A stretch of 64,000 nucleotides of DNA from Candidatus Omnitrophota bacterium (lineage in GTDB: Bacteria; Omnitrophota; Omnitrophia; Omnitrophales; Aquincolibacteriaceae). Each line of letters starts with the position of its first letter. Within the stretch, counting starts at the first letter, position 1. A program made the position numbers and the translations under genes. Positions 505 through 41,677 of this stretch are shown here, piece by piece. The notes beneath the pieces were generated by a model. The model ran no database searches and was not told where the DNA came from. It worked only from the letters and a program-made list of their open reading frames with translations. The stretch is from contig JAYTHE010000002.1 in the NCBI GenBank assembly GCA_043732705.1, positions 127,608 through 191,607 of the forward strand, given 5' to 3'.

Positions 505-1635
505 ATGGATTCCGTACAAGTTCTACAAGAAACCAGGGCCGCACTAATTTTTAGTCAGCTTGACCTTTCGAGCCGCCGCGAGGTTTGGGGCGATTTTTCC
601 AAGGGGCAAACGCTTGCGCATATCTTTAGGATTTGGACTGAACAAGGCCGTTCGGAGCTTAAGATCCTGCTTGAAAAATTTAATCCCGACCAAGAAATTT
701 TGGAATGTATTTCAAAAAAAATTGAAATTATTTCTCTGTCCGATTTGATTTACCCGGAATTATTGCGCGCCATTTCTGATCCGCCATTTGTCTTATATGC
801 CCGCGGGCAAACAAGTTTTTTGAACGATTTGTCGATTGCAGTTGTCGGTTCGCGGCAAGCGAGCTTTTACGGAACGGAGCAGGCGTATCGCTTTTCCCGT
901 GTTTTGTCCGATGCCGGGCTGACAATTGTTTCGGGGCTTGCGCTTGGAATTGATCAAGCCGCGCACGAATCTGCTCTGAATGCCGGAGGCCATACCATCG
1001 CGGTTTTGGGATGCGGGATAGATGTGGTTTATCCCGCAGAAAACAGCCGGCTTTTTGAACGCGTTGCGGAGCACGGTTTAATTTTAAGCGAGTATCCTTT
1101 GGGCGCCGAGCCGCGTGCTTATCATTTTCCGCGCCGCAATCGAATCCTATCCGGTCTTTCATTGGGCGTGCTTGTTGTAGAAGCGCATGAGCGCAGCGGC
1201 TCTTTAATTACAGCTTATCAAGCTCTTGAGCAGGGGCGTGAAGTCTATGCTATACCGGGGCCGGTCCATCACATTACCTCTCGCGGAACACATCAATTGA
1301 TTCGTGAAGGCGCCGCGCTTGTGGAAGCGCCTGAAGAAATTATTTTGTCGGTTGCGGAGCATTCGGGCATGCTTCAGTTTCCATCAAAAAAAGAATTCTC
1401 GGAAGGCTGCTTTGCGCCTGCGGTGTCAGCCGCAGGGGCCGAGTCTGTTTCAGTCAGCATTGAGGCTGAGGAGAGCCATCCTATTTTGAAACTTCTCAAA
1501 CAACAAAGCCGGGATTACGAAGGGCTGTTTGAATTGTCAAAAATGGAGCCGCAAGACTTTGCGCGTGCATTAACCGAGCTGGAGATCGAAGGCAAGGTTC
1601 GAAAAAATTCTTCCGGGTACTTCGAATTAAGTTAG
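505..1635 (+). CDS. dprA: DNA processing protein DprA (Smf)
   Basis: Rossmann-like DprA core (VVGSRQASFYGTEQAYRFSRVLSDAGLTIVSGLALGIDQAAHESAL...HTIAVLGCGIDVVYPAEN) with C-terminal winged-helix-like extension. Confidence 0.85.
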   Translation: MDSVQVLQETRAALIFSQLDLSSRREVWGDFSKGQTLAHIFRIWTEQGRSELKILLEKFNPDQEILECISKKIEIISLSDLIYPELLRAISDPPFVLYARGQTSFLNDLSIAVVGSRQASFYGTEQAYRFSRVLSDAGLTIVSGLALGIDQAAHESALNAGGHTIAVLGCGIDVVYPAENSRLFERVAEHGLILSEYPLGAEPRAYHFPRRNRILSGLSLGVLVVEAHERSGSLITAYQALEQGREVYAIPGPVHHITSRGTHQLIREGAALVEAPEEIILSVAEHSGMLQFPSKKEFSEGCFAPAVSAAGAESVSVSIEAEESHPILKLLKQQSRDYEGLFELSKMEPQDFARALTELEIEGKVRKNSSGYFELS

Positions 1636-1972
1636 CCCACCCTTCTCTTCGATTTTCTGCTGCATCAATGTATATCTCTGCGCCTGCTGCGTTATGCTAA
1701 CGAAGATTTCTTCAACGTACTGCTGAGAGTACGTCTGCGGAATCTTCGCTCGCATGCCTTGCATTCACAGCGATCTACACTGAGTCGCGACGAAAACCGA
1801 AAAGAAGTGTGGGCTTAAACTTGCCATGGAATGATAGTTGCCTTTTGAAGGAAGGGGGCGCTTCATAAAAAACTTATAATATTTGACCAAAAGGGTTTTC
1901 AGCTGTACTCTTTCAATAGAAACTCAAGGGTTTCTGCCATCTTAGTTTAAAAATTGATTGAAAGGAGCGCAT

Positions 1973-2371
1973 ATGACAGGAACAGCTGCACCGGTAGGAA
2001 AAAGAATTGTCGCAGGTCTAATCGATTTTATTGTTGCGCCAATTGTCATCGGAATTGTGCTCGGACTTCTTTTTGTTTTGCTTGGTAACGCACTCCCTGA
2101 AGCTGCGCGTTCGATTATCTTGATTGCGGCGAATATCGCGTGGCTGCTTGTGCGTGATACGCTTTTTGCTCCGGGCCGTTTGATCATGAAATTGAAGCTC
2201 GTGAGTTTAACTTCAGGCAAGGTGACATTTATGCAGGCGTTTCTGCGTAATATTCTGCTCGTGATTCCAGTGGTTTTGATTGTCGGATACATTCTTGAGC
2301 TTGTTTGGGTTTGTGTTAAAGGTCATCGCCTGGCGGATGATTGGGCGAAGACACAGGTGGTTGAAGCTTAA
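1973..2371 (+). CDS. RDD family membrane protein
   Basis: GKRIVAGLIDFIVAPIVIGIV... pattern with two TM helices. AGGAG RBS at 1961-1965 points to the ATG at 1973 rather than the track start at 1958. Confidence 0.55.
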   Translation: MTGTAAPVGKRIVAGLIDFIVAPIVIGIVLGLLFVLLGNALPEAARSIILIAANIAWLLVRDTLFAPGRLIMKLKLVSLTSGKVTFMQAFLRNILLVIPVVLIVGYILELVWVCVKGHRLADDWAKTQVVEA

Positions 2372-2380
2372 TGAGGTCGC

Positions 2381-2403
2381 AAGTTACGAGGCGTAACTTG
2401 CAT
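2381..2403 (+). other. 9-bp stem-loop immediately after the RDD gene stop
   Basis: gcaagttac-gaggc-gtaacttgc perfect inverted repeat. Confidence 0.5.
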
Positions 2404-2414
2404 GACCGAATTAA

Positions 2415-2470
2415 GTCCCAGCGAAGGCGGGGACCTAGCGCTGGATTCCCGCCTACGCGGGAATGACAAA
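2415..2470. repeat. nested palindromic intergenic repeat, family A copy 1 (gtccc..ggggac hairpin plus ctggattcccgcctacgcgggaatgacaaa)
   Basis: The 30-mer ctggattcccgcctRcgcgggaatgacaaa recurs at 19311-19340 with one mismatch. Internal 8-bp stem attcccgc/gcgggaat. Confidence 0.75.
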
Positions 2471-2480
2471 TATAAGAAGA

Positions 2481-2518
2481 CCGCAGATTTCAAAAGAATC
2501 TGCGGCTTTTTCTTTTTC
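2481..2518 (+). terminator. rho-independent terminator
   Basis: ccgcagatt-tcaaaag-aatctgcgg followed by ctttttctttttc. Confidence 0.7.
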
Positions 2519-2601
2519 TGTTTAGTTTTTGCTCTGCGCTAAGCGCAACCGCAGTGCCGGCAAACGATTTGTTATATGCTATCTTTTTAGAGAGGTAATG
2601 C

Positions 2602-2997
2602 ATGGCGAAAAAATCAGTTAAATCAAAAGTATCCCAGAAAAAAAATTCTTCTTCCGAAAATCCGCTTCCGGTTTATACGGAAATTGCAAAGCTCAAAAAA
2701 GTGATCTTTGATTTAGGCAAAGACAAAGAATCGCTTGAGACGCGTACGCAAGAACTCGAAATTCACATGAGTCTGATGATTCGTTTGCTCACAACGCTTT
2801 GCATTGAAAAATTTGGCATGCGGGTCGGTGTGTTAAAGCGGCTGATTAAGCAAGCCGAGGAAGAGGCGATTCGCGATTCCCAAATTATTCAGCTCGAAAA
2901 CTGGTTTCAAATGCAGCCGCGCGCCAAAAAAGATAAGCCGCAAAATCCGCCTCAGCCTCCGGAAACTCCCGGCGATCCATGGGAAAACATAAGCTAG
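2602..2997 (+). CDS. hypothetical protein (predicted coiled-coil, Lys/Pro-rich C-terminus)
   Basis: ORF with upstream GAGAGG RBS. No recognisable domain. Confidence 0.45.
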   Translation: MAKKSVKSKVSQKKNSSSENPLPVYTEIAKLKKVIFDLGKDKESLETRTQELEIHMSLMIRLLTTLCIEKFGMRVGVLKRLIKQAEEEAIRDSQIIQLENWFQMQPRAKKDKPQNPPQPPETPGDPWENIS

Positions 2998-3000
2998 GTT

Positions 3001-3075
3001 TAAGGTTAAATCTAAAAGGTTAAAACCTTAATGTTTTGGCCTTTAACCTATCAGTTTTAACCTTTCTAGGTCCGA
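3001..3075. repeat. AT-rich ggttaaa/tttaacc intergenic repeat block (family C), shares the 15-mer ggttaaatctaaaag with 44184-44198
   Basis: aaggttaaatctaaaaggttaaaacctt...cctttaacc...ttttaacc. Also contains the small hairpin aaggtt-aa-aacctt. Confidence 0.35.
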
Positions 3076-3160
3076 TAAACTTCTATTTACAATTCCTCCG
3101 ACCTGCCGATACAATACCCTGACTTAAATAGTGTAAAGCTGTTGTGCGGGAGCAATTACG

Positions 3161-3361
3161 GTGGAAATTCTTTTAAACGGTGAAAAACGCAAGGTCGATT
3201 CCGGCCTCACGCTTGCCAAACTGCTTGAAAGTCTTGAAATCCGTTCTGGCTCGGTGGCGGTTGAACACAATGAAAAAGTCATTCCCCGGCGGGATTTAGA
3301 GCATTTCGCTTTAAATTCCGGCGATAAGGTGGAAATCGTTCGGTTTGTCGGTGGCGGCTAA
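3161..3361 (+). CDS. thiS: ThiS/MoaD-family sulfur-carrier protein (ubiquitin-like, C-terminal GG)
   Basis: 66 aa, ILLNGE...LTLAKLLESLEI...VAVEHNEKVIPR...GDKVEIVRFVGGG, GTG start. No thiG or thiF adjacent. Confidence 0.6.
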   Translation: MEILLNGEKRKVDSGLTLAKLLESLEIRSGSVAVEHNEKVIPRRDLEHFALNSGDKVEIVRFVGGG

Positions 3362-3405
3362 AGATCGGTACGGGGTACATTTAGCTTCCTTAAATAACGG
3401 AAAAT

Positions 3406-4284
3406 ATGGATCCAAGAGCGCAATCGTTTCTCCAGTTTCTCAAAACGGAAAAGGGCTACTCCGAGCATACGCTGAAAAATTACGCGATTGATTTGCGTGA
3501 GTTTTTCGGGTTTCTAGGCGCAAAAACGCTTGAAACCGTGACGTATCTGGAAGTACGCGCCTATCTCGCAGTTTTGAAAGATAAAAACTTCAGTAAGAGC
3601 TCAATAGCAAGAAAGCTTGCCTGCATTCGCTCCTGCTTTAAGTATCTCGCGCGCGAAAAAGTGATTCAGCATAATCCGGCGGCCGGCATCCAAACTCCAA
3701 AACGGGATAAAAAACTTCCTGATTTTTTAAATCAGGAAGAAATGGCTAATCTTCTCGACGCGCCTTCAAGCGGGTCTTGGGAAGAGAAGCGCGACAAAGC
3801 GATTCTGGAAATGCTCTATAGCTCCGGCCTGCGTGTCAGCGAGCTTGTCAGCCTTGACCACAGTGCCGTCGATTTAAGCGGCGGCTTATTGCGTGTGCGG
3901 GGCAAAGGCAAGAAAGAGCGTATCGTTCCGGTCGGGCGCGTCGCGATTCAAGCCATGAAAGATTATTTCGCTATTAAACCTCCGAGGGATACCGGGGCTT
4001 CATTGGAAAAACCGGTTTTTAAAAACAGATTGGGTGGGAGACTAACTGACCGCAGCGTCCGGCGTATGATTTTGAAATACACGCGCCGCATCGCTTTGGC
4101 TAAAGACGTCTCGCCGCATATGCTTCGTCATTCGTTTGCGACTCACATGCTTGACCGCGGCGCGGATTTGCGCAGTGTTCAGGAACTTCTCGGTCATGAA
4201 AATCTTTCCACGACCCAGATTTATACCCATGTGACCACGAAGAGATTGAAAGAGGCCTATGCCGCTGCCCACCCCCGAGCTTAG
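3406..4284 (+). CDS. xerC: tyrosine site-specific recombinase XerC/XerD family
   Basis: N-terminal SAM-like core-binding domain (LKNYAIDLREFFGFL). Catalytic C-terminal motifs LRHSFATHMLDRGADLRSVQELLGHENLSTTQIYTHV. Confidence 0.8.
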   Translation: MDPRAQSFLQFLKTEKGYSEHTLKNYAIDLREFFGFLGAKTLETVTYLEVRAYLAVLKDKNFSKSSIARKLACIRSCFKYLAREKVIQHNPAAGIQTPKRDKKLPDFLNQEEMANLLDAPSSGSWEEKRDKAILEMLYSSGLRVSELVSLDHSAVDLSGGLLRVRGKGKKERIVPVGRVAIQAMKDYFAIKPPRDTGASLEKPVFKNRLGGRLTDRSVRRMILKYTRRIALAKDVSPHMLRHSFATHMLDRGADLRSVQELLGHENLSTTQIYTHVTTKRLKEAYAAAHPRA

Positions 4285-22798: not shown

Positions 22799-23461
22799 AT
22801 GCTCGATTTTATTACGCTTGAAACATCTCCGCAGCCGGATGCCGCGATTATTTGGCTGCATGGCCTCGGAGCGGACGGACATGATTTTGAATCAATTGTT
22901 CCTGAATTAAAACTTCCAGAAAATTTACATATTCGTTTTATTTTTCCGCATGCGCCCACTATGCCCGTTACAGTGAATGGCGGTTATGTCATGCCGGCCT
23001 GGTACGATATTTACGGCGGCGGTGTCCTCAGCGGCGAAGATGAAAACGGTTTGCGTCGTTCGCAAAAACAAATCATTGAACTCATTGAGAGCGAAATCAA
23101 AAAAGGAATTCAGCCGAATCGAATTGTGCTTGCTGGTTTTTCACAAGGCGGTGCCATGACTTTGTTTACGGGATTGCGTTATCCGAAAAGATTAGCGGGA
23201 TTGATGGTGCTCTCGGGGTATTTGCCGATGGGCGAGGCTTTAACCGCTGAAATGAGCGAAACAAACTCAAAGACACAGGTTTTTATGGCTCATGGCAAGC
23301 AGGACAGCGTGGTTCCTTATGAAGGCGCGCGGATCTCAAAAGAGTTTCTTTTGAAACGCGGAATTCCGGTTGAATGGCATGAATATTCCATGGCGCACTC
23401 GCTTCATCCACAAGAAATTAAAGACATCTCCTCCTGGATTCAAAAGATTCTTGTTGGCTGA
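22799..23461 (+). CDS. phospholipase/carboxylesterase family alpha/beta hydrolase
   Basis: GFSQGGAM nucleophile elbow, HG oxyanion region. 220 aa. Confidence 0.7.
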   Translation: MLDFITLETSPQPDAAIIWLHGLGADGHDFESIVPELKLPENLHIRFIFPHAPTMPVTVNGGYVMPAWYDIYGGGVLSGEDENGLRRSQKQIIELIESEIKKGIQPNRIVLAGFSQGGAMTLFTGLRYPKRLAGLMVLSGYLPMGEALTAEMSETNSKTQVFMAHGKQDSVVPYEGARISKEFLLKRGIPVEWHEYSMAHSLHPQEIKDISSWIQKILVG

Positions 23462-23482
23462 AAAAATAATTAGTTTGGTCTT

Positions 23483-23553
23483 TTGAGATAGGATTCAAAT
23501 TGCTCAAACAGTTGCCTCTTCGGGCAAAACTCGCAATTTGAATCCTATCTCAA
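23483..23553. repeat. perfect 21-bp inverted repeat enclosing a 29-nt loop that itself forms a ttgcc/ggcaa stem capped by a cUUCGg-like loop
   Basis: ttgagataggattcaaattgc ... gcaatttgaatcctatctcaa. No flanking T-run on either strand. Confidence 0.8.
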
Positions 23554-23883
23554 AGACATTCGCGCGATGTTGGGGTGGGGGCAATCATCAGAGAAGCAAC
23601 ACTTAGAAGTCTCAATCCTTCGAAGGCTCTTTTAGTAATTTTGCCACTTCCTTGCTCAACCTCAGCAACCTAGCTTCCCATCATATCTTCACATGGTTCT
23701 GCAAAGCAGGACCATGTGAAACGTTTTTTTGTCTCAGCTGTGTTGAGACAAAAAAAGATGTGACGGGAAACTGCTTAAAAGTGCGAGGCAGGGAATAGGG
23801 AAAATTAAGGGCGCGTCTCTACTAAGTTTGAATGGGAAGCCTTGTTTCTCCGCTTTATGCTCACACCCACACTGCGTAGAAAA

Positions 23884-23958
23884 TAAAAAAAGGCAATTCA
23901 ATTTACGAGTTCTGCCCGCAGAGGCAGCTGTCTGAGTAAAGTGAATTGCCTTTTTTAG
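23884..23958 (-). terminator. long bidirectional intrinsic terminator hairpin downstream of the acidic-protein gene
   Basis: aaggcaattca ... tgaattgcctt 11-bp stem with an internal ctgcc/ggcag sub-stem, flanked by A-run (23881-23889) and T-run (23951-23956). Confidence 0.6.
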
Positions 23959-23990
23959 TTCAATGCCGGATACTTTTCAACAGGAAACAC

Positions 23991-24233
23991 TTACCAAAGG
24001 TTATCTTTTTTTGAGCCTTTGGTTTTATTCATGCGCACTTGCTTTTCCCAGGGGTCATCTTCAAGCGCGTCTTCATCCTTGAGCTCTTCGTCATCGTCGG
24101 AAGACTCTTCTTCGTCAAGATGGTCATCAAGCTGTTCTAAATCTTCTTCATCGTCAAGATCGTCGTCCTTAAGGTCCTTCGGATCCTCCAAGTCGTCATC
24201 GAGATCATCATCATTAGGCTCACGGTCAAACAT
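23991..24233 (-). CDS. highly acidic small protein (80 aa, about half Asp/Glu)
   Basis: MFDREPNDDDLDDDLEDPKDLKDDDLDDEEDLEQLDDHLDEEESSDDDEELKDEDALEDDPWEK... AGGAGAAG RBS 5 nt upstream and own terminator downstream. The antisense Ser-rich ORF 24019-24318 is a mirror artefact. Confidence 0.55.
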   Translation of the reverse strand: MFDREPNDDDLDDDLEDPKDLKDDDLDDEEDLEQLDDHLDEEESSDDDEELKDEDALEDDPWEKQVRMNKTKGSKKDNLW

Positions 24234-29066: not shown

Positions 29067-29455
29067 GACTTCCTTACAGAAAAACCTTGCTTGAGAGCGT
29101 CTTGAATAGCTGCATCAATTTTTTTATTTGCATCAAATGCATTCATTTCCTGGTGGAATTTTTCTAATTCACCGCCGGGATGAACTTCAACCAAAATTTC
29201 CGGCACCATGGTTTGAGTTTGGGCAACGGTGGCGCCGTTGCCGCTGTCGGCTTTATTCCACATATATTTAGTGAAAGGTATCATGGATAAACTAATACTG
29301 AAAAGAATGGCAAGCACAATCAGCCCCATAACCACAATCGCGCGGTTATCAGTGTCGCTCTTTTCGTAACGGATAGTATCGTTTTCGCGGCTGTCGTGGT
29401 GCATCTCGTTAGAAGCGGCCTTGTTCCCGTGTTGTGGTTCAAAGTTATTATTCAT
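29063..29455 (-). CDS. hypothetical single-TM protein between act and cox operons
   Basis: One TM helix (AIVVMGLIVLAILFSISLSMIPF). No recognisable domain. Possibly an accessory subunit. Confidence 0.4.
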   Translation of the reverse strand: MNNNFEPQHGNKAASNEMHHDSRENDTIRYEKSDTDNRAIVVMGLIVLAILFSISLSMIPFTKYMWNKADSGNGATVAQTQTMVPEILVEVHPGGELEKFHQEMNAFDANKKIDAAIQDALKQGFSVRKS

Positions 29456-29510
29456 AAAAATTTTCTTAAGTTACAAAGCGCTTTGTTGGTTCCGCTTCTA
29501 ACGGGACTCA

Positions 29511-30659
29511 TCAGTGATGCTCCTCGGCAGTCCAAATCGGATCCTGTTTAAACGTTAAAGGTGTGCGCGCTAATTGGCGCATCACAAAACCCAGCCAGAT
29601 TGAACCTAACGTGATCCAGCAGGCAAAGTCGAGCCAAGACATTGTAAAATGGGGATAATGCGTCGGCTTAACCTGCCAGATTAAATCCAGCCAGCGGATA
29701 ACAAGAATTAAACAGGCAACTTTGACAAGTCTCTCGGTTTTTCGTTTTACAAAGCGCATCAGCAGCAAAAAGAAAGGCGTAACAAATTGGAAAAGGAAAA
29801 CAAAAGTAATTAAATATTCCCAGCCGCCGCGTGAGCGGTGAATGTACCAAGCCGCTTCGGAGGGTTGATTAGCTGACCAGATAATAATGAACTGTGAAAC
29901 TGAAGTATAGGCCCAGAGCATGACCGTTGCGAAAAGCAAAGTTCCAAGGTCGTGCAGGCGGTCAATTGATAAAACAGTTTGCATTGAGTTATTATTTTCT
30001 TTGCGCAGGAAAACCGTCACGATGATTGCAAAAGCTAAAGCGGACATCGCAAAGTGCACGCCGAAGATCGCGCCATAAATCGTCGAAAACCAGTTGGGTT
30101 CAAGCGACATACCCCAATCAAAAGCGCCGAAGGTCACAGTTAAAGCATACAAAACCATTCCGACGCCGCCGTAACCGGTCAGTCGGTGCAATGTTTTCGG
30201 ATTGGGTGTTTCATCCTGAATAGCAGAGTGTTTGCGAAGCTTACACGCAAGAAAAATCCAAACTGCAAAGTAAATTGCAAAACGCGCTAAAAAGAAAGGT
30301 GTGTTCAAATAAAGTTTTTGCACATCATGATGGGTGCCGTTGGGCTGAAGCCAAACATATAAAGTTTTTAAATTGAGGGCGATGGGAATAAAAAGCAATG
30401 CACAAAGCGGCAATGCTTTCAAAACAGTTTCTTGTGTGCGGCGAATAACAAAGCCCCAGCCGCCCCAAGTTAAATGCTGGATCATGGTCAGCGGGAAGCA
30501 GCCGACAGTCAGTCCCAAAATATAAATCCAAGCAACCAAATAAGCATTTGCGAAAGCTTCAGGCTGTTTCCACCAGCCGAAAGCGCAAAGCAGAATACCG
30601 ATCCCACCGGTGATAAAGGCCTTATTTGAAAGCTGTTCGAATTTTTTTGCTGTTTCCAT
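29511..30659 (-). CDS. actF: alternative complex III subunit ActF (NrfD/PsrC-like membrane protein)
   Basis: Polytopic membrane protein paralogous to the ActC ORF. Position after actE. Confidence 0.65.
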   Translation of the reverse strand: METAKKFEQLSNKAFITGGIGILLCAFGWWKQPEAFANAYLVAWIYILGLTVGCFPLTMIQHLTWGGWGFVIRRTQETVLKALPLCALLFIPIALNLKTLYVWLQPNGTHHDVQKLYLNTPFFLARFAIYFAVWIFLACKLRKHSAIQDETPNPKTLHRLTGYGGVGMVLYALTVTFGAFDWGMSLEPNWFSTIYGAIFGVHFAMSALAFAIIVTVFLRKENNNSMQTVLSIDRLHDLGTLLFATVMLWAYTSVSQFIIIWSANQPSEAAWYIHRSRGGWEYLITFVFLFQFVTPFFLLLMRFVKRKTERLVKVACLILVIRWLDLIWQVKPTHYPHFTMSWLDFACWITLGSIWLGFVMRQLARTPLTFKQDPIWTAEEHH

Positions 30660-37650: not shown

Positions 37651-37701
37651 TTAAAGCTATTTTGATGTATTTCATCCCAAAAATTGGCGTATATACAGGT
37701 T

Positions 37702-40700
37702 AAAGTGGATCAAAAAGTCCTAAAAGCAATAAAAGAGCGTATTCTCATCCTCGACGGAGCGATGGGAACCATGATTCAGCGTTATAAGCTCGGTGAATCC
37801 GACTATCGCGGCAGTACCTACAAAAACCATGCCCACCCACTGAAGGGCAACAATGATGCACTGAGTGTGTCCCAGCCGCAAATCATTGAGGAGATTCATC
37901 TTAAGTACCTTGAAGCGGGTGCAGATATCATCGAAACGAACACTTTTAATGCCACCCGTATTTCGATGGCAGATTACCATTTTGAAGCAGAAGTCAGAAA
38001 ATTGAATCTTGAAAGCGCGCGGGTTGCCCGTCTTGCGGCCGATAAAATGACGGCCAAAACACCGCATAAACCCCGTTTTGTTGCTGGAGCTGTTGGGCCA
38101 ACCAGCAAAACCGCGTCACTTTCACCCAAAGTCAGTGACCCCGGCTATCGCGCCGTCACTTTTGATGACCTTGTTGCCTCCTATGCCGAGCAAATCGAGG
38201 CTTTGATCGAAGGCGGTGTCGACATGCTTTTGATCGAAACCGTTTTTGATACTTTGAATTCCAAAGCCGCAATTTTTGCCGCGCAGCAAACTTTTCAAAA
38301 AGCAGGTAAGACCTTGCCGTTGCTTGTGAGCGGCACAATCACAGATAAAAGCGGACGCACACTTTCCGGACAAACCACCGAAGCTTTTTGGAATTCGATT
38401 TCACATGGCAATTTGCTTTGCGCCGGTTTGAATTGCGCCTTGGGAGCGCAAGAGCTCGAACCTTATATTAAAGAAATGGCGCGCGTCGCAACTTGTTACG
38501 TTTCAGTTTATCCCAACGCGGGATTGCCGAATCAATTTGGCGAATATGATGAAACACCGGAGCAAACCGCGGCCTTCATCAAACCATGGGCGCAAAAAGG
38601 CTATATCAATTTAATCGGCGGATGCTGCGGCACTACGCCCGAACATATCGCGGCAATGGCTAAAGCGGTTGAAGGCTGTAAGCCGCGCCAGCTTCCGAAC
38701 TCCGATCATCTCACGCATCTCAGCGGACTTGAGCCCGTCACTTTGCGCCCTGAAATCGCATTTGTGAATATTGGTGAACGTACGAATGTAACCGGTTCGC
38801 CAAAGTTCATGAAATTTATCAAAGAAGGTAATTGGGAAGAAGCGCTGAAGATTGCAAAACAGCAGGTTGAGTCCGGCGCGATGATTATTGATATCAATAT
38901 GGATGAAGGCTTGCTGGATTCTGAAGCGTTGATGACGCAATTCATGAATCTTGTTGCCTCCGAGCCGGAAATTTCAAAAGTTCCGATCATGGTTGACAGT
39001 TCCAAATGGTCCGTGATTGAAGCCGGCCTCAAATGTATGCAGGGCCGCGGCATCGTTAATTCGATTTCTTTGAAAGAAGGCGAAGCGGAATTGATTCGCC
39101 GCGCGAAACTCATTCGTAGCTATGGCGCCGCGATGGTGCTGATGGCGTTTAATGAGCAGGGACAAGCGGATACTTATGAAAAGCGCACGAGTATTTTGAC
39201 GCGTTCATTTAAAATTTTGACTGAGCAGGCGAATATTGCACCCGAAGATATTTTCTTTGACCCGAACGTTTTACCGATTGGTACGGGATTGGAAGAGCAT
39301 GCAAATTATGCCGTCGATTTTATCGAAACCTGTAAGTACTTAAAAAATCTTTCGCCCCGCAGTCATATTACGGGCGGCATCAGTAATTTGTCTTTTGGTT
39401 TTCGCGGTAAAAATGAAATTCGCGAAGCGATTCACGCCGTTTTTCTTTATCATGCGATTAAAGCGGGACTCGACTCAGGCATTGTGAATCCGGGATTGCT
39501 GCGCGTTTACAGTGATGTTCCGAAAGACCTGCTCGACCTTTCCGAAGACTTGGTTTTAAACCGCAACCCGAATGCCACCGAAGCGCTTTTAAAATACGCC
39601 GAAACGCATTCCGAGGAAAAGAAAGATCCTGCCAAAGTTTTGGAGTGGCGTACCAAGCCCGTGCGCGAACGTTTAACGCATGCACTCGTGAACGGCATTG
39701 CCGACTTTGTTGAGCCTGATTTAGATGAGGTGATTCCGCTTTATCCCGCGGCGCTTGAAATTATCGAAGGCCCGCTGATGGACGGAATGAAGATCGTGGG
39801 CGATTTATTTGGCGAAGGAAAAATGTTTTTGCCTCAGGTTGTGAAAAGCGCGCGTGTCATGAAAAAAGCTGTGGCGCATTTAACGCCATTGATTGAAGCG
39901 CAAAAGAAAAAAGGTTCGACAATCGGCAAAGTGATTATGGCGACGGTGAAAGGCGATGTGCATGATATCGGTAAAAATATCGTCGGCGTTGTGCTCGGTT
40001 GCAATGGTTATGACATTGTTGACCTCGGCGTAATGGTGCCGCTTGAAAAAATCCTGGAAGAAGCCGCGAAACAAAAAGCGGATATTATCGGTTTGTCGGG
40101 GTTGATTACGCCTTCGCTCGATGAAATGGTCTATGTCGCGCAGGAAATGGAATCGCGTAAACTCAAAACACCGTTATTGATTGGCGGAGCGACAACTTCA
40201 GAACGCCACACGGCTGTAAAGATTGATCCAATGTATTCAGGCCCTGTGATTCACGTGACGGATGCATCCAGAAGCGTGGGTGTTTGCCAGGAATTACTCA
40301 GCGAAAGCCGACGTGACGCGTATTCCGCGACATTCAAAACTAAATACGCGAAACTGCGTTCTGATTTCGAAAAAAATAGAGGTAAGATCCAACTCCGTAC
40401 GCTAGAAGACGCGCGCGCGAACGGTTGGAAAGGCGATTGGTTGCATGCCGAAGCGGGGCATACCTGTGATATTCATAAATCGCCGCTCATTACAAAACCA
40501 AGCTGGCTTGGCGTGAAAGCATTTCATGACTGGGATTTAAAAGAAATCCGAAAATATATTGATTGGACGCCATTTTTTCAAACCTGGGAATTGATGGGGA
40601 AATATCCGGCCATTTTCGAAGATAAAGTCATCGGAGTTGAAGCTAAAAAACTTTTTGACGACGCGCAGGAAATGCTCGAGATCATGGTTGAAGAAAAATG

Positions 40701-41400
40701 GGTGAGCGCACATGCCGCGATTGGATTTTTCCCCGCTGCGCGCGAAGGCGACGACATCGAGCTGTTCGAGGACGATACGCATAAAAAGATCGTCGAAACT
40801 TTTTGCACTTTGCGCCAACAGGGCGTGGTGAATGGCATTCCGAATTTTGCGCTTGCGGACTTCATTGCACCGAAAGAAACAGGCGTAAAAGATTACATGG
40901 GATTTTTTGTTTCAACTGCGGGTGTGGGACTTGAAAAACACGTTGAGCGTTTTGAAAAAGATCATGACGATTACAAATCAATTCTCGTCAAAGCCTTGAC
41001 TGACCGCTTTGCTGAAGCGTTTGCGGAAGTGTTGCATGAGAAAGTCCGTCGCGAATGGTGGGGCTATGCCAAGAATGAGAGATTCACAACCGAACAGCTG
41101 ATTAAAGAAGAATATGACGGCATCCGTCCCGCGCCCGGTTATCCCGCCTGCCCTGAACATACCGAAAAAGCCAAGCTCTTCAAACTTCTTGACGGAGAAA
41201 AAAACACCGGCGTGAAATTGACCGAGAATTTCGCGATGTGGCCCGCGTCTTCAGTTTCTGGTTTTTATTTCGCTCATCCTGAATCGAAATATTTCGCGGT
41301 GGGTAAAATAAACAAAGACCAAATCGAAGATTATGCCCGTCGTAAAGGTATGCCGGTTAAAGAAGTTGAGCGTTGGCTTAGTCCGTATTTAGCGTATTAA
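37702..41400 (+). CDS. metH: cobalamin-dependent methionine synthase
   Basis: All four modules present: Hcy-binding ([13 protein letters not shown]), pterin-binding, B12-binding ([15 protein letters not shown]) and AdoMet reactivation domain. Start probably GTG 37702, as the track start 37684 is TTG. Confidence 0.9.
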
Positions 41401-41483: not shown

Positions 41484-41648
41484 TTCGGCTCAATTAATTT
41501 ATTGGTTCTCTCAAATTAAAAAGCTTAGTCTACTCAGGCAGCTGCGTCCTGACGGCGCAGAACTCGCATCCTAAGAATTTTAATTTGAGTCATTGCGCAA
41601 AGAGGAGTGGAGGCTTTGCGATATGGCCTCTGGCCAATCGCCTCTCTG

Positions 41649-41677
41649 AATCGGCTGAAGCCGATCTGATTTTTTTA
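41649..41677 (+). terminator. intrinsic terminator (atcggc-tgaa-gccgat + T7) ending a ~250-nt structured ORF-free stretch after metH
   Basis: Hairpin plus TTTTTTT at 41671-41677. Confidence 0.55.

Follow-up and report, generated by a model that had tools for sequence, protein, structure and literature searches.

The 64,000-nucleotide stretch of Omnitrophota DNA analyzed here (the window; contig JAYTHE010000002.1 of assembly GCA_043732705.1) contains a gene-free intergenic spacer of 529 bp (positions 23462–23990) that carries two copies of a structured element. The spacer lies between two convergent genes, one encoding a carboxylesterase (Abhydrolase_2; 22799–23461, + strand) on its left and the other encoding an 80-amino acid acidic, D/E-rich protein with no Pfam match (23991–24233, - strand) on its right. 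The element, which consists of a long hairpin and a conserved tail, is a previously undescribed dispersed structured element of one Omnitrophota lineage, located at gene ends, and most likely acts as an RNA terminator or a small RNA gene. The original prediction that the spacer lacks protein-coding potential agrees with our results: none of its small open reading frames (ORFs) had a Pfam match above threshold, its reading frames are not preserved between the window and the equivalent spacer of a relative (L083, GCA_043718225.1), from which it differs by indels of 1, 2, and 3 nucleotides, and no ORF similarity is retained in two further sequences carrying the element (L190 and L227). Decayed genes were rejected as the origin of the spacer; the 149-amino acid and hemP genes found at this junction in the relatives L087 and L088 left no conserved frame or similarity. 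A CsrB/RsmY-like sponge was also rejected, as GGA is not enriched (8 and 5 in the spacer vs. 8.6 and 6.2 expected per 529 bp).

All four hairpins previously proposed in the spacer (H1 to H4) are present in the sequence. H1 (23479–23557, + strand) begins 17 nucleotides past the esterase stop codon, is co-directional with the esterase (+ strand, termed the U orientation), and has a 25-bp perfect outer stem, an asymmetric internal loop, and an inner stem. The arms proper (23482–23503 and 23533–23554) are 22 nucleotides in length and 100% complementary, reaching 25 bp when extended to 23479–23557. This bears out the earlier description of a perfect inverted repeat enclosing a 29-nucleotide loop with an inner stem, and, as also described, no T-run follows the stem. 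The inner stem within the 29-nucleotide loop is 5–6 bp in length (TTGCC(T)/(G)GGCAA) and is capped by four to six nucleotides (CUUC/UCUUCG). The internal loop reads CTCAAACAG on its 5' side and AAACTCG on its 3' side.

H2 was described as a nested hairpin, and such a stem-loop occurs at 23688–23720 (15 bp, loop AAA). The sequence ACGTTTTTTT directly 3' of the stem had been overlooked; with ACG and seven T's following the stem, the feature extends over 23688–23730 on the + strand. H2 is thus a canonical + strand intrinsic terminator and is called on that strand by a terminator scan. It constitutes an extra 34 nucleotides in the left arm of the spacer, is found in the window and L083 but not in the right arm, L190, or L227, and is a lineage-specific insertion.

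The central hairpin, H3, has the form T7-GTCTCA-loop-TGAGAC-A7. Its sequence was correctly reported, but its coordinates were wrong by ~13 nucleotides, the true position being 23724–23756 rather than 23737–23770. The suggestion that H3 is a bidirectional terminator does not hold, since the T-run is 5' and the A-run 3' of the stem, so that no U's follow the stem on either strand. The same reverse polarity (T-run, stem, A-run) is seen in L083, L190, and L227, with the structure kept by different stem sequences in each, as seen from the alignment for L083 and L190 and from its own sequence and fold for L227. A motif, GAYATnnYGGGAARCT, adjoins H3.

H4 (23884–23958, - strand) has a 21-bp stem located between an A-run and a T-run, 32 nucleotides past the stop codon of the acidic-protein gene. 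Its arms (23886–23906 and 23936–23956) are 21 nucleotides in length and 95% complementary, with a 29-nucleotide loop that exceeds the rules of the terminator scanner. The A-run on the 5' side and the T-run on the 3' side give H4 the shape of a bidirectional terminator on both strands, in keeping with its earlier assignment as a long terminator-type hairpin. When the short-range inverted repeats of the 64-kb window are ranked by length, the top three all fall within the spacer. The minimum free energy of the spacer is -205.8 kcal/mol on the + strand (z = -12.75) and -192.1 kcal/mol on the - strand (z = -9.34), and none of 100 shuffled sequences folded as well. The spacer hairpins are real and far beyond chance.

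H1 had been taken for a unique perfect palindrome. Comparison of the two halves of the spacer indicates instead that H1 and H4 are sister copies of the same element in opposite orientation, a relationship missed in the original prediction. The loops of H1 and H4 are reverse-complementary at 25 of 29 nucleotides, and a degenerate pattern of the loop (CAGYTGCCTCTKCGGGCARAACTC) occurs in the 64 kb only in H1 and H4, on opposite strands, with zero occurrences expected. Alignment of 23479–23700 to the reverse complement of 23741–23960 gave a score of 131, as compared to 39±6.6 in shuffles, and the two halves are ~70% alike over ~200 nucleotides. The spacer is thus an imperfect inverted duplication of a ~130–220-nucleotide unit whose axis is at the loop of H3, with two copies arranged tail to tail, alpha (23476–23700, + strand) and beta (23963–23757, - strand). 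Covariance model (CM) scores were 135.9 bits for alpha (23476–23615, + strand) and 131.1 bits for beta (23826–23963, - strand). The alpha tail (23558–23687, + strand) contains a conserved G-rich block (ATTCGCGCGATGTTGGGGTGGGGGC...CAGAGAAGCAAC), which reads as C-rich and anti-Shine-Dalgarno (anti-SD)-like on the - strand; it is alignable across eight copies and is matched by both nhmmer and the CM. The beta tail (23757–23883, - strand) is the reverse complement of the alpha-tail type, and is CU-rich on the + strand (GATGTGACGGGAAAC...CTTGTTTCTCCGCTTTATGCTCACACCCACACTGCG). "One or two small structured RNAs," as the spacer was first characterized, is a fair description of these two units. The extreme folding energy and the long-range pairing of the whole spacer arise because two inverted copies lie side by side, and they are not evidence for a single large RNA. 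For genome scanning in general, an extreme folding z-score can stem from two inverted repeat copies rather than from one large RNA.

A third, solo copy of the unit (win_c; 41506–41640, + strand), likewise overlooked originally, is located 108 nucleotides downstream of metH (37684–41400, + strand). Its hairpin (41509–41589, loop CTCAGGCAG...GCAGAACTCG) is followed by the tail GCGCAAAGAGGAGTGGAGGCTTTGCG, and the copy was identified by nhmmer with E-values of 4e-20 to 4e-22 and by the CM with 91.4 bits. A terminator analogous to H2, composed of the small hairpin ATCGGCTGAAGCCGAT, CTGA, and T7, lies 3' of this copy (41652–41677, + strand). Searches for the family, carried out with an nhmmer profile and then with a CM (R1, filters off), yielded exactly three copies in the window, along with two in L083, two in L190, one in L227, and one in L087, the last being a solo copy between purE and a gene for a TIR-domain protein. 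L348 gave a weak, hairpin-only match (E = 0.014). All eight full copies are 17–108 nucleotides past a stop codon, with the hairpin adjoining and co-directional with the gene that ends there; the upstream reading frame is a called gene for seven of the eight and a Usp-like gene fragment in L190.

No copy was found by nhmmer in 2.2 Mb of unrelated loci. A pattern scan of metagenomes returned one true copy (L190) among the 120 matches listed, nearly all the others being chance matches, and pattern scans of viral contigs returned no true copy among their matches. Plasmid and phage collections had no match to the element. Nor does the element correspond to a known Rfam RNA: no copy matched any family at gathering threshold, with zero matches to Rfam 15 in the whole window and zero for win_c, L190, and L227, and near the spacer only sub-threshold eukaryotic miRNA-type hairpins were seen (≤30 bits vs. 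thresholds of 64–230). Omnitrophota is an uncultured, little-studied phylum, and full-text searching of its literature for noncoding RNA or inverted repeats found nothing relevant. The earlier notion that the 21-bp stem belongs to a repeat, such as a miniature inverted-repeat transposable element (MITE), was correct insofar as the hairpin is part of a family dispersed to other loci and genomes. The accompanying notion of a recombination site finds no support, since a neighboring recombinase is lacking, as are the features of attC or dif sites.

The anatomy of the unit was deduced from an alignment of eight copies. It is composed of a hairpin of 70–100 nucleotides and a conserved tail of ~50 nucleotides, in which one strand is rich in G and its complement in C. 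The outer stem is 20–27 bp in length; its 5' arm often contains an A-run and its 3' arm a T-run, and a clamp of GCTC/GAGC or CTCA/TGAG is present in four copies. The internal loop is invariant, with CTC..CAG (CTCrrCAG) on the 5' side and AACTCG (rAACTCG) on the 3' side, giving the hairpin the signature CTCAGACAG...GAACTCG. The inner stem-loop has five to seven pairs, and the tail has the consensus TTCGCGCAAnGnTGGGGTGGrGGC ... GCGGAGAAAC. The stems, in contrast to these conserved parts, covary: 24 of 26 stem pairs are changed on both sides in a compensatory manner, and 19 of 20 outer pairs vary with compensation. Of the cells scored for pairing, 91.8% are paired as compared to 64.7% in shuffles (0 of 500 as high), and slid controls gave 38–49%. 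The outer arms of the three window copies (GTCTTTTGAGATAGGATTCAAATTGC, AAAAAAGGCAATTCACTTTAC, and CTCAAATTAAAAAGCTTAG) bear no relation to one another, while the outer stem ends GCTCAAAAAG...CTTTTTGAGC are common to L087, L227, and L190.

Compensatory changes occur both between orthologues and between paralogues, in line with the prediction of a structured noncoding region, and suggest that the spacer hairpins are under structural selection. The element is also conserved in related genomes (L083, L190, and L227). The closest of these is L083, which has an esterase 88% identical to that of the window and the same spacer, 533 bp in length. Nucleotide identity to L083 is 81% for the esterase coding sequence, 77% for the acidic-protein coding sequence, 81% for the alpha tail, 58% for H3, 73% for the beta tail, and 75% for H4. 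The loop of H4 is conserved at 27 of 29 positions, and at least six of its stem pairs are changed on both sides and still pair; the stem of H3 is wholly different, with the T-run/stem/A-run layout retained. H1 is identical at 78 of 79 positions (23479–23557 vs. L083 2049–2127), whereas the flanking coding sequences are 77–81% identical. The near-identity of H1, alongside sister hairpins that vary by compensation, suggests recent conversion or transfer, or else a constraint specific to H1. In L227, whose esterase is 83% identical, the element is diverged and better aligned when flipped, and a remnant orthologous to the 5' arm and the beginning of the loop of H1 lies directly after the stop codon, adjoining the full copy. 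In L190 the element is again paired and, as compared to the window, flipped, and its surroundings are GC-rich and unrelated.

Several features bear on the strand from which the element would be read. When the outer stems are read on the strand of the upstream gene, they contain seven A·C mismatches and no G·U pairs, and therefore the hairpin appears to be adapted to the opposite strand. On that strand, opposite the upstream gene, five of seven hairpins gain 3–7 kcal/mol in stability, and only there is an uninterrupted U5 found in the 3' arm (L087, L227, and L190). Every copy retains the CU-rich blocks UUUCUCCGC and CCACCCC/CCUCC, which on the best-pairing strand lie upstream of the hairpin; in win_c, a small hairpin directly preceding the terminator hairpin has the block CCUCCACUCCU in its loop. 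In four of six paired units, a -10-like TATNAT and, after it, GGGAA are conserved ~115 nucleotides upstream of the hairpin, with no -35 element.

On balance we lean, with somewhat less than even confidence, toward the units being outward-read small RNAs with CU-rich anti-SD-like segments that end at hairpins which also terminate neighboring genes. Each unit would be a small transcription unit read toward its own hairpin, outward from the center of the spacer, with the - strand transcribed for alpha and the + strand for beta. The RNA would carry the anti-SD-like segments UUUCUCCGC and CCACCCC/CCUCC and would terminate at the hairpin, which would also form its 3' structure. The convergent protein gene has its stop codon right beside this hairpin, so that the mRNA of that gene would likewise be ended or shielded by it, and any 3' untranslated region (UTR) arising by read-through would be complementary to the small RNA. 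The conserved internal loop is a proposed protein-binding site. CU-rich segments followed by a terminator-shaped hairpin resemble the usual layout of base-pairing small RNAs aimed at ribosome-binding sites. With its covariation, invariant internal loop, and SD/anti-SD-like tail, the element is a concrete candidate for a lineage-specific termination or riboregulation system with a protein partner.

A number of observations weigh against this assignment. No sigma-70-type promoter was predicted in the spacer on either strand, the -10-like motif lacking a -35 partner. Strand-specific terminators (H2 with its T7, and 41652–41677 with its T7) lie past the unit in the other orientation, and transcription of the upstream gene therefore probably crosses the unit. 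H1 has no U-tract on the - strand, the wobble asymmetry comprises seven positions in four copies, and the hairpin-only copy in L348 has no space for a tail. Template-switch "palindrome correction" in DNA hairpins, with no RNA function, could also mimic compensation. Given the lack of a predicted promoter, the H1 hairpin without a U-tract, and the probable read-through, our support for the outward small RNAs stays short of even.

The probable read-through would be expected if the unit were instead a cis-acting module in the 3' UTR of the upstream gene's mRNA, with the hairpin, a G-rich SD-like tail, and a terminator in series, stabilizing the 3' end or serving as a binding site for the ribosome or a protein; no small RNA would then be made separately. 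The placement of all eight full copies past, and co-directional with, an upstream gene is consistent with such a module, as are the + strand-specific terminators following the unit in alpha (H2 with its T7) and win_c, the T-run after the tail in all paired units, and the absence of a predicted internal promoter. Yet this is the orientation having seven A·C mismatches, no G·U pairs, and the poorer folding in five of seven copies, and the full U-tract right after the hairpins of beta and of its L083 counterpart would halt transcription before the tail is reached. We regard a 3' UTR module as rather unlikely.

Also unlikely, and slightly more so, is a nonautonomous mobile DNA element, either a ~520-bp foldback or MITE-like pair or a REP-like unit, that spreads to gene 3' ends or hairpins and has no RNA function, its hairpins being kept at the level of DNA or single-stranded DNA. 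The distribution of the element has much that fits mobility. It is patchy at the esterase/acidic-protein junction, being present in the window, L083, and L227 and absent from L084–90 and L221–225, and L190 and L227 have it in the opposite orientation to the window and L083. Unrelated contexts and filled and empty sites are seen (the paired copy of L190, the copies after metH and purE, and the 31-bp spacer in L084–86). L227 has the half-hairpin remnant of an older copy beside a full one, H1 is identical at 78 of 79 positions while genes are at ~80%, as fits recent copying, and the outer stem ends GCTCAAAAAG...CTTTTTGAGC recur in L087, L227, and L190. The stems, however, are almost wholly different among copies in one genome with pairing kept, which is the opposite of young MITEs or RAYT-recognized REPs. 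In addition, no clear target-site duplication is evident, as direct repeats are only short and AT-rich (TTAGTT in the window, TGGTT in L083) and not beyond chance, the Pfam scan of 37 window ORFs revealed neither a transposase nor a RAYT, copy number is low (three in 64 kb), and the plasmid and phage collections had no match. As for the ends of a putative MITE, H1 and H4 do not agree in their outermost stem bases, and the 20-nucleotide outer flanks are weakly alike by eye.

A combination of mobility and regulation seems improbable to us, less likely again than mobility by itself. The element in this case would be a novel self-propagating structured element that homes to gene 3' ends or to its own hairpin loops and installs a convergent anti-SD small RNA antisense to the 3' UTR of the host gene, and it would amount to an Omnitrophota-specific mobile cassette that combines a terminator with a riboregulator. 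Homing into its own hairpin loops is suggested by the half-hairpin remnant beside the full copy in L227.

A single large (~480-nucleotide) structured noncoding RNA spanning H1 to H4, with a long-range helix between ~23566–23601 and 23846–23882 and H3 at its tip, is very unlikely. RNAalifold does predict this helix in the window, L083, and L190, with a few compensated pairs, L190 folds alike, and the z-score is -12.75. But solo copies (win_c and L087) have the hairpin and tail without a partner, and the long-range pairing is therefore an automatic consequence of two inverted copies. H2 and its T7 would furthermore terminate such an RNA midway, both orientations of the element with respect to the flanking sequence are found, and the ratio of G·U to A·C in the long helix (9 vs. 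5) is not decisive. Most improbable of all is an invertible DNA segment or site-specific recombination site with the 29-nucleotide inverted loops of H1 and H4 as crossovers: the 25-of-29 inverted repeats 403 bp apart, the flipped orientation in L227 and L190, and the five short-read contigs that end in or at the edge of hairpin loops would fit, but both flanking genes point inward and leave nothing for a switchable promoter to drive, the sole recombinase found in the window is XerC/D-like (3406–4284), 20 kb off and beside dprA, solo copies exist, crossover in the loop would leave mismatched arms, and the contig ends may be explained by poor recovery of fragments having both hairpin arms.

Integron attC sites were considered and rejected, as the stem bases (GTCTTT.../...AAAGAC, AAAAAAGG.../...CCTTTTTT, and GCTCAAAAAG.../...CTTTTTGAGC) lack the R''/R' core boxes (RYYYAAC ... 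GTTRRRY), H1 is a perfect stem with no extrahelical bases, and the neighboring genes are housekeeping genes rather than cassettes. By eye, the internal loop has none of the motifs that define attC, dif, K-turns, loop E, or ribozyme cores.

Among known systems, the nearest kind appears to be the lineage-specific, sequence-conserved terminator-type repeat exemplified by TRIT, with REP/BIME next nearest. TRIT of Mycobacterium occurs at gene termini in 147 copies, is bidirectional for the most part, and has been suggested to require an additional factor binding its conserved portion (RNIE paper, PMC3152330). Like TRIT, the Omnitrophota element is a lineage-restricted palindromic motif, conserved in sequence and structure and repeated at gene termini. 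The two have no sequence relationship, and TRIT differs in having a conserved stem sequence and in overlapping the stop codon at about -8, whereas the Omnitrophota stems covary freely, the internal loop and a 50-nucleotide tail are conserved, and the copies lie 17–108 nucleotides past the stop codon; the copy number of the latter comes from 64 kb. The REP/BIME/REPIN sequences of Proteobacteria are dispersed extragenic palindromes at gene 3' ends, often in inverted pairs with a linker, that occur in mRNA 3' ends and are sometimes mobile. REP arms are conserved, RAYT-recognized, and ~20–35 nucleotides in length, whereas in the Omnitrophota element the arms vary and the loop and tail are conserved; the three window copies share no arm sequence of the kind that REPIN copies have in common. 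The foldback MITEs Correia, ERIC, and RUP are ORF-free, imperfect palindromes that are intergenic, patchy among relatives, and co-transcribed with their neighbors. These show conserved terminal inverted repeats and target-site duplications, neither of which is clearly evident in the Omnitrophota element, and the Omnitrophota stems evolve by compensation and not decay.

In architecture only, the element also resembles multicopy small RNAs with C-rich anti-SD seeds, such as LhrC1–5 of Listeria (PMC4132741) and RsaE/RoxS (PMC8216469). Both exist in multiple paralogous copies, lack ORFs, and have, ahead of an intrinsic terminator, a conserved C/U-rich motif that is single-stranded or located in a loop. 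There is no homology to these RNAs, and the Omnitrophota unit, known from sequence alone, differs from them in its terminator hairpin, which is unusually long, has a conserved internal loop, and lies at the stop codon of a convergent gene.

The genes surrounding the spacer are ordinary chromosomal ones. A Pfam scan of 37 window ORFs (~23 others lie outside the scan) identified, among others, dprA, the XerC/D-like recombinase, lipid A and lipopolysaccharide core genes, and metH, and seven COX/alternative complex III genes were named by synteny with Pfam-annotated contigs of relatives. The acidic protein has >50% D/E and a basic C-terminus. Its gene precedes COX4, COX3, and COX1 on the - strand, and is located directly downstream of COX4/COX3/COX1 in every relative that has the esterase/acidic-protein junction. 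A contig scan with the esterase gave only matches of ≤55% identity from other phyla, which were of no use for synteny.

Close relatives differ in gene content at the esterase/acidic-protein junction, which is a hot spot for such change. It is occupied by a 31-bp spacer in L084–86, by hemP cassettes (hemP plus a second gene, and a Fur-box-like promoter) in L087/88 and L221, by an AbiEii toxin gene in L223/224, by an 8-kb P-type ATPase/TonB transporter cluster in L089/90, and, in L348, by 252 bp containing diverged hairpins. In L221 (4500–4600) and L222 (7340–7440), an insert, CACGAGGAGAATAGAAATAAGCTCGTCCCCGA..CTAGGGGATCC, seemingly splits the esterase gene at its 3' end, with the last codons repeated after it. 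Beside the solo copy in L087, genes for TIR-domain and SIR2-like proteins (a Thoeris-like pair; 1225–3365) lie between purE and a SIMPL gene, and are missing there in L084.

Short-read assemblies appear to break at long hairpins of this type. Five independent short-read contigs end in or at the edge of long-hairpin loops: the end of L001 corresponds to 23532, the start of L082 to 23507, and the others are ends of L190, L226, and L227. Two Logan contigs of SRR23617244 overlap by only 26 nucleotides, in the loop of H1. The breaks may reflect poor recovery of fragments with both arms, or real heterogeneity. A repeat, a loop flip, and an inversion were rejected as assembly-graph causes, as none predicts the exact breaks at 23532 and 23507.

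Two other repeats were observed. One is a separate, REP-like small palindromic repeat, (G)TCATTCCCGCGnAGGCGGGAATCCAG or CATTGCGAGCGnAGCGAAGCAATCTAG, with covarying stems, found in the window at 2465, 19335, and 36466 (all - strand) and 41456 (+ strand), in L087 at 840 and 1087, and in L227 at ~1887. It lies 8–50 nucleotides upstream of three copies of the hairpin element and on both sides of the L087 copy. The other is a second family of long-loop hairpins, located at 11026–11129 and 29397–29513 of the window in intergenic or gene-junction positions, with arms CCCGTTAGARGC and GCYTCTAACGGG enclosing a ~74-nucleotide AT-rich loop.

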